Positions 7,990 through 8,397 of a DNA stretch of 64,000 nucleotides are shown piece after piece. Made by a program: the position numbers and the translations under genes. How positions within the stretch are numbered: the stretch's first letter is position 1; each line of letters starts with the position of its first letter. The notes beneath the pieces were generated by a model. That model was not told the origin of the DNA. It saw only the letters and a list, made by a program, of their open reading frames with translations, and did not search any database. Source of the stretch: Escherichia coli (GTDB taxonomy: Bacteria > Pseudomonadota > Gammaproteobacteria > Enterobacterales > Enterobacteriaceae); the NCBI RefSeq assembly GCF_030013205.1, contig NZ_CP122648.1. One strand, given 5' to 3'.

Positions 7990-8397
7990 CTAGGCATATC
8001 CCTGATAGAACGCCAATACACGCTGCATAACTTCGCTCTTCCGGCACTCGCGACAGATTATGTTCATACGCCTGTCGTAGCGGCGTATTTCTCCGTCGGG
8101 TAATGTCCAGATAAGGCCCGGATCAACCACAACAGGTTTCTTCACCTTTGCCCTCGAGAGTTTTTTGCGGGCGTTTTGCCAGTCCTTACGAGCCTGTTCT
8201 GACGGGAACAACCCATAGCCAGAGTGATATACATCACCACTGGCAACCAGCTCTCTGGCAAGAATGCTCATCAGATATCTTGTCGCACCTGTTTTAGCTT
8301 CCAGTTGCCGTAGCGTCTCACGACCGCTCTGGCGCACGAGTTCCACCACCTGCCCTTTAATTTTTTCCCGCTCTTCTTGTGTAAAAACTTTTGCCAC
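7990..8397 (-). CDS. hypothetical phage protein in the replication module (135 aa, C-terminal CRECRK)
   Basis: ORF starts 40 bp after the replication initiator gene, in the position of lambda P or ren, but too small for a helicase loader. Confidence 0.5.
   Translation of the reverse strand: MAKVFTQEEREKIKGQVVELVRQSGRETLRQLEAKTGATRYLMSILARELVASGDVYHSGYGLFPSEQARKDWQNARKKLSRAKVKKPVVVDPGLIWTLPDGEIRRYDRRMNIICRECRKSEVMQRVLAFYQGYA

Follow-up and report, generated by a model that had tools for sequence, protein, structure and literature searches.

A Ren-family DUF977 protein beside the initiator of a loader-less prophage replication module in Escherichia coli

The early operon of the prophage

The window, a 64,000-nucleotide stretch of Escherichia coli DNA (contig NZ_CP122648.1), is 100% identical to chromosomes of porcine E. 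coli, for example K_EC180 and O139:H1 strains. Positions 1-16700, together with 1-4600 of locus L001, represent the early part of a Stx2e element that lies beside ompW in porcine E. coli, and the window beyond it consists of ordinary chromosome. The late region of the prophage is degraded in the matching RefSeq record, with a partial small terminase subunit and truncated genes, so this copy of the prophage is probably defective, irrespective of what its replication genes are capable of.

The early operon diverges from a DicA/CI-like repressor gene and carries, in order, a DicC/Cro gene, a YdaT/CII-like gene, an O-like replication initiator and a gene of the DUF977 family (Table 1). The C-terminal third of the initiator is 39% identical to lambda O. 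A row of iterons lies within the initiator gene, adjoined by an AT-rich direct repeat at 8902-8940. The lambda ori is likewise located inside gene O, and by this analogy the phage origin probably lies inside the initiator gene, at the iterons.

Table 1. Features of the early operon and its surroundings, in window coordinates
Feature	Coordinates	Strand	Evidence or remark
DUF977 / PHROG-142 'Ren-like' gene, 135 aa	7990..8397	minus	WP_001151172.1; named LygF in several phage records
Winged helix-turn-helix (three helices, beta-hairpin wing, long fourth helix), codons 7-83	8149..8379	minus	AlphaFold2 pLDDT 93-97
C-terminal motif Y-D-R-x2-N-x-I-C-x-E-C-R-x-S-x2-M-x-R-V-L-A-F-Y, includes CRECRK, codons 107-131	8005..8079	minus	Invariant columns
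Spacer, 40 nt, initiator stop codon to DUF977 start	8398..8437	minus	Carries the Shine-Dalgarno sequence
O-like replication initiator, 339-aa ORF (PGAP start 9403)	8438..9457	minus	PHROG 391, E 1e-91
DnaT-like tail KRCVNHISEPDTEIPPGFRG, last 20 codons of the initiator	8441..8500	minus	15/20 identical to the E. coli DnaT C-terminus
Iterons inside the initiator gene, about six copies of CATCnGGnCATTTTGAnCnGATG at 23-24-nt spacing, each an inverted repeat	8944..9074		Repeat search
YdaT-family / CII-like gene, same operon, upstream	9384..9905	minus	
Cro-like DicC, first gene of the rightward early operon	9889..10119	minus	
DicA / CI-like repressor, divergent from the operon	10203..10610	plus	
SIR2-family gene, variable slot just downstream of DUF977	6590..7621	minus	Pfam SIR2_2; weak PADLOC SIR2/PDC-S21 matches

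The DUF977 gene starts with GTG, 4 nt past AAGGGGGA, a strong ribosome-binding site; its relatives have ATG at this position. The first-pass annotation described the product as a basic protein of 135 residues with a C-terminal CRECRK motif, and this description holds, with Pfam DUF977 covering the full length on the minus strand. The computed pI is 9.95, with 27 lysines and arginines against 16 aspartates and glutamates. The only cysteines, C115 and C118, lie inside the sequence ICRECRKS, in which CRECRK occupies residues 115-120, and the allele ends in ...YQGYA. The protein is identical to a RefSeq protein and is found in thousands of E. coli genomes, and many genomes of porcine E. coli carry the gene with 100% identical DNA, under the annotation 'DUF977 family protein'. 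Among 37 distinct alleles, the dN/dS ratio is about 0.064, indicating strong purifying selection, the N-terminal domain (0.03) being more constrained than the C-terminal motif (0.09). The identical annotated copies, the full-length Pfam match, the dN/dS ratio and the conserved motif make this clearly a genuine gene and no chance open reading frame.

The slot just downstream of DUF977 is variable, low in GC (35-38%) and takes inserted accessory genes. In the window, it holds the SIR2-family gene, probably a defence moron that lies outside the replication module, with a promoter-like site nearby at 7943-7914. In phage mEp460, the same slot holds the defence gene PD-T7-1 (locus L005, 33822-35171; E 4e-157), and in locus L121 it encodes an uncharacterised 518-aa protein (1909-3465). 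Two further features of the surroundings are an IS481-family transposase gene (5188-6261, plus), inserted in the nin-like region with the SIR2 gene on one side and hokD on the other, and an open reading frame at 11591-12160 (minus) in the early-left region between dicA and dicB. The latter has a zinc-ribbon-like CPVC...CPKH motif; at this place, the PGAP annotation has no more than a shorter hypothetical protein, and PADLOC gives no match.

Family membership and architecture of the DUF977 protein

Pfam DUF977 (PF06163) matches the window protein with 101.2 bits, against a cutoff of 22.1 (E 6e-29), and aligns residues 1-134 with model positions 1-132 of 134. The protein also falls into PHROG 142, 'Ren-like exclusion protein' (E 5.7e-45), as does lambda Ren itself, with the sequence taken from NC_001416 (E 1.6e-41). 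NCBIfam and PADLOC contain no match for it, and literature searches for LygF or DUF977 in a phage context found nothing relevant. DUF977 proteins, or 'LygF', from mEp460, Rac-SA53 and the Stx phages 75/02 and POCJ13 are 70-94% identical to the window protein over the full length. The window protein is typical of them and differs immaterially by its GTG start and its ...YQGYA end. It is thus a catalogued and already known member of its family, and annotation pipelines label it Ren-like.

Direct comparison with lambda Ren is less extensive. BLASTP aligns only the C-terminal 20 residues of the window protein with Ren, at 55% identity (E 1e-6; NIICRECRKSEVMQRVLAFY in the window protein, NLVFKECRQSAAMKRVLAVY in Ren), and Ren has no match to Pfam DUF977 at E 0.1. 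As a test of homology independent of the mixed PHROG profile, a DUF977-only profile was built from 12 diverse DUF977 proteins, found by searching 1.8 billion representative proteins. Aligned with Ren by hhalign, this profile reaches a probability of 95.2% (E 2.9e-8) over 76 columns, which span both the winged helix and the C-terminal motif and keep their order. Because both regions align in the same order, DUF977 is a longer version of Ren with about 35 additional linker residues, and 'DUF977', 'LygF' and 'Ren-like' are names of one family that includes lambda Ren. By every criterion that can be tested on sequences, the window protein belongs to both DUF977 and the Ren family.

Lambda Ren and the window protein share several features. 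Ren is a 96-aa protein with an N-terminal winged helix followed by the motif N-x3-E-C-R-x-S-x2-M-x-R-V-L-A-x-Y, and its gene, which directly follows O and P, is the last of the replication block of the pR operon, as is the window gene. The window protein differs in being 39 residues longer, by way of a basic disordered linker, and in having a second conserved cysteine, giving CxxC where Ren has a single one (FKEC). Most relatives of the window module also differ from lambda in having a DUF1627 gene between the loader and DUF977.

The structural model agrees with this architecture. An AlphaFold2 model built on a 16-sequence alignment (mean pLDDT 80.5) shows the winged helix-turn-helix of Table 1, followed by a low-confidence basic linker (residues 84-115) and two short helices of moderate confidence (residues 116-132). 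Foldseek searches of PDB and BFVD return generic winged-helix matches only, among them GntR, MarR, DtxR and methyltransferase N-terminal domains, none below E 1e-3; the folds of lambda P, DnaC, DciA and DnaD are absent from these matches. A sequence search of PDB chains yields nothing meaningful (best E 0.1), and PHROG 2391, 'DNA binding protein', matches residues 1-82. Homology searches and structure prediction, which the first-pass annotation had put forward as a check, therefore converge on a winged-helix protein of the Ren family and on no loader family or fold.

Within the C-terminal motif, Y107, N112, C115, E117, C118, R119, S121, M124, R126 and F130 are invariant in the 12 diverse DUF977 proteins. 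Lambda Ren retains the asparagine, the glutamate, C118 and the arginine of the motif, has phenylalanine at position 115, and so holds one of the two CxxC cysteines. The CxxC pair is thus a real signature of the DUF977 subfamily that is not universal in the wider family. A zinc site within one chain was considered and rejected: C115 and C118 are the only two ligands, which makes such a site impossible, and the single histidine, His58, is not conserved.

DUF977 is easily confused with another small family of the same neighbourhood. YdaW/DUF1627 proteins of the Rac prophage and of Stx phages are also small winged helix-turn-helix proteins encoded just after the loader, often by a gene directly upstream of DUF977. 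They form a separate family, without the C-terminal Cys/Arg motif of DUF977. K-12 YdaW was accordingly rejected as a DUF977 prototype, being a winged helix-turn-helix plus DUF1627 protein with no BLASTP alignment to the window protein. A preprint that names ydaW as a retron-toxin blocker does not apply to the window protein, YdaW being of another family. An origin of DUF977 and DUF1627 as tandem paralogues is unsupported, with an hhalign probability of 31% confined to the winged helix-turn-helix.

Gene order in relatives with and without a helicase loader

In the first-pass annotation, the protein was placed in the position of the helicase loader, which could mean that it replaces one. The window protein fails every loader-family test. 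Pfam Phage_lambda_P (PF06992) gives no match at E 0.1, with lambda P and a P-like protein from locus L020 matching as controls; the AAA+ loader domains PF01695 and PF00308 do not match either, with YdaV matching IstB_IS21 as a control; and Pfam detects no DnaD, DUF721 (DciA-type) or related domain. With lambda P (PF06992) and with DnaC and YdaV (IstB-type AAA+), the protein shares only the position of its gene after the initiator in the window module. It resembles them neither in sequence nor in fold, and it has no Walker motifs.

Gene order in relatives places the gene elsewhere. A sample of 80 viral-contig loci was chosen by DUF977, with DUF977 proteins 92-99% identical, and the genes upstream were assigned to classes by tblastn searches with reference proteins, along with Pfam checks. 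The order initiator, DnaC-like loader, DUF1627, DUF977 is found in 52 of the 80 loci, with a loader of the YdaV type that is 50% identical to host DnaC. Another 11 have a lambda-P-like gene in place of the DnaC-like one, and in 11-12 the initiator is followed directly by DUF977, as in the window; four loci have too little upstream sequence and one is unclassified. A loader and DUF1627 therefore precede a near-identical DUF977 in 63 of the 75 classifiable loci. The annotated Stx phages 75/02 and phiSTEC1589 have the same order of O, DnaC, DUF1627 and DUF977. In locus L015, a 98%-identical DUF977 allele lies behind a DnaC-like loader, so no allele is specialised for loader-less modules.

Since DUF977 is fourth in most relatives, after the initiator, a loader and DUF1627, its gene occupies the ren slot and not the loader slot. 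This gene order, together with the generic winged-helix fold, speaks against the idea of a replaced loader, and it establishes that the protein is independent of the loader type with which it is found.

The absence of a loader from the module, also claimed in the first-pass annotation, is real. Neither the prophage part of the window nor the matching RefSeq record has any gene annotated as DnaB-, DnaC- or P-like, so that a loader elsewhere in the prophage is not apparent. A counterpart is mEp460, a confirmed temperate phage for which lytic and lysogenic cycles are both possible. Its initiator and DUF977 protein are 94% and 92% identical to those of the window and are encoded one directly after the other, and its whole 45.9-kb genome contains no DnaC-like or P homologue. 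Because this temperate phage has the same initiator-DUF977 arrangement and no loader, loader-less modules work.

Modules of this type are already known. In a survey of enterobacterial lambdoid phages, 34 of 314 have only an O homologue, without a helicase or a loader, and the accompanying description of phage LLS terms the replication of this O-only type 'not yet understood' (Genome Res 2025, PMC12315714). The window module is a natural loader-less variant. LLS resembles the window and mEp460 in having an O-like initiator without a helicase or loader gene, and its initiator, like that of the window, ends in a DnaT-like tail. It differs in that the initiator is of another sequence type (HTH_36 + Phg_2220_C) and is followed by a methyltransferase gene where the window has DUF977. 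LLS, a viable phage, has no DUF977, DnaC-like or P homologue. Locus L121, which is also loader-less, has a 70-aa protein consisting only of a winged helix-turn-helix in the DUF977 slot.

A second sample of 80 loci was chosen by the initiator, and DUF977 was sought within 4 kb. In these redundant E. coli prophages, which are not independent events, DUF977 is kept in 49 of 50 loader-less loci and is absent within 4 kb from 13 of 29 loader-containing ones. Loader-less loci share the 40-nt spacer in conserved form even where their initiators are of different types. The spacer is about 60% identical to the final 35 nt before DUF977 in four-gene modules, when the endpoints of a virtual deletion are optimised so that the initiator stop codon is joined to those 35 nt. 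This alignment suggests that a 1.56-kb segment with the dnaC-like and DUF1627 genes was lost or gained as one unit, with which it is consistent without being proof. Given the conserved spacer and its alignment to four-gene modules, the retention of DUF977 in 49 of 50 loci is expected from shared descent. The pattern could instead reflect a functional dependence on DUF977.

Roles of the DUF977 protein and of the initiator tail

The initiator has a feature that bears on the missing loader. Its end, ...SEPDTEIPPGFRG, is identical to the C-terminus of host DnaT at 15 of 20 residues and aligns with positions 159-179 of the NCBIfam DnaT model. DnaT is a primosomal protein needed to recruit DnaB-DnaC in replication restart. 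The same kind of tail is present in the Rac initiator YdaU (...LPDSAIPPGFRG), in gp15 of Stx phage 75/02, where it is identical to that of the window initiator, and in LLS gp44 (...VDTKIPEGFRG), and these three initiators are mutually dissimilar. Lambda O, which binds P, has a different C-terminus. Where a module has a DnaC-like gene, the start of this gene lies about 10 nt past the tail, mirroring the host dnaT-dnaC operon. Literature searches with the tail sequence IPPGFRG found nothing relevant.

As judged from these alignments, the tail may be a handle for DnaB-DnaC, whether host or phage-encoded, in which case loader-less variants would use host DnaC. The missing loader would then be better explained by the DnaT-like tail of the initiator than by the DUF977 protein. 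The first-pass annotation had suggested that the phage may recruit host factors differently; the module without a loader bears this out, and the evidence points to the initiator tail and away from DUF977 as the means. As a general account of the loader-less replicon, in which the initiator would recruit host DnaB-DnaC through a tail copied from DnaT (...SEPDxxIPPGFRG-COOH) and common to unrelated initiators with or without a phage DnaC-like gene behind them, and with DUF977/Ren as an accessory, this is a tentative possibility.

A separate observation links phage initiators to DnaT by another route. The initiators of loci L020 (3558-4736) and L067 (3681-4727) have the Pfam 'DnaT DNA-binding domain' (PF17948, E 1e-17). 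Both loci are P-type-loader modules with DUF977, and they provide a second, independent link between a phage initiator and host DnaT.

The reading favoured here, with moderate confidence, is that the DUF977 protein is a Ren-like accessory of the initiation complex and no loader, and that the initiator tail recruits host DnaB-DnaC. Encoded by the last gene of the early rightward operon, the protein would be produced from the same transcript as the initiator, as an accessory and not as a helicase loader. It would act as Ren is thought to, as a dispensable protein- or DNA-binding partner of the initiation complex, and would keep phage replication running in cells with prophage-encoded exclusion systems. 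Its winged helix and C-terminal motif would give the contacts with DNA or protein, and the initiator itself would recruit host DnaB-DnaC through a C-terminal tail that mimics host DnaT.

Homology, position and architecture argue for a Ren-like role of the DUF977 protein, and what is known of Ren gives this role its content. In the RexA/RexB study, ren is described as following O and P and being co-translated with them. Mutants in ren suffer exclusion by Rex, suppressors of this defect map to O and P (Toothman and Herskowitz 1980, as cited there), and two-hybrid assays show Ren binding to both RexA and RexB. The study also reports O-Rex and Ren-Rex interactions, and its authors suspect a replication role for ren. 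The anti-exclusion role and the binding partners of the DUF977 protein are proposed by analogy with these results. No rexAB genes are present in the prophage, and with rexAB missing from both the prophage and its relatives, the exclusion target, if there is one, would be a different system. The suggestion of a Ren-like exclusion factor in the first-pass annotation thus stands as far as homology to Ren is concerned, with the exclusion itself following only by analogy. Clear homology to a known non-replication protein, which the first-pass annotation named as a refutation, is given by Ren only loosely, since Ren may itself touch replication. Against the Ren-like proposal, 'works like Ren' says little on mechanism, rexAB is missing, the pairwise similarity to Ren is confined to about 20 C-terminal residues, Ren does not reach Pfam DUF977 at E 0.1, and the contrast of 49 of 50 with 13 of 29 loci could reflect dependence on DUF977.

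Three other readings deserve comparison with the Ren-like accessory. As a loader surrogate or adaptor, DUF977 would bridge the initiator to host DnaB/DnaC and so replace a phage DnaC-like or P protein. This would fit a gene that alone follows the initiator directly, both in the window and in viable mEp460, the contrast between 49 of 50 loader-less loci that keep DUF977 and 13 of 29 loader-containing loci that lack it in the initiator-chosen sample, and the genetic interaction of Ren with O and P given in the RexA/RexB study. It is nonetheless very unlikely: near-identical DUF977 alleles lie behind both DnaC-like and P-like loaders, the protein resembles no loader class by structure or sequence, LLS and L121 are loader-less without DUF977, and the retention in 49 of 50 loci is expected by descent if the junction arose by loss or gain of the dnaC-like and DUF1627 genes. 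A DNA-binding regulator, whose winged helix would bind the origin or a promoter or terminator of the nin-like region and tune delayed-early transcription or the origin without any part in exclusion, is a less remote prospect, although still unlikely. The confidently predicted winged helix-turn-helix with its GntR/MarR-type structural neighbours, the PHROG 2391 match over residues 1-82, the strongly basic character of the protein and the position of the winged helix-turn-helix as its most constrained part (dN/dS 0.03) are all consistent with such a regulator. However, domains of this fold can serve protein-protein contacts as well, no operator candidate emerged, and the part best conserved with Ren is the C-terminal motif and not the winged helix-turn-helix.

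Stabilisation, tethering or replication-mode switching has also been speculated for Ren. Applied to DUF977, this would make the protein an accessory on the initiator-origin complex that acts by stabilisation, membrane tethering or a theta-to-rolling-circle switch and is needed under some growth conditions only. The position of DUF977 in the operon, adjoining the initiator in all module types, is in keeping with such a function, as are the O-Rex and Ren-Rex interactions of the RexA/RexB study and the opinion of its authors that ren is probably replication-related. This possibility overlaps the Ren-like proposal and is inseparable from it by sequence analysis; as a reading of its own, it is improbable, being ranked just below the DNA-binding regulator and above the loader surrogate.

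The DUF977 protein of the window is an unremarkable member of a prophage family that is very common, and no new kind of helicase loader. The value of the analysis lies in uniting the family names, in placing the gene in the ren slot and in separating this protein from the real oddity of the locus, a replication module without any loader. For the function of the Ren family, mEp460 would be a good model. For loader-less replication, the DnaT-like tail of the initiator offers a concrete and cheap hypothesis. If true, it would account for replication in the loader-less class (about 11% of lambdoid phages) and would also give a function to the extreme C-terminus of DnaT, a part so far unstudied.
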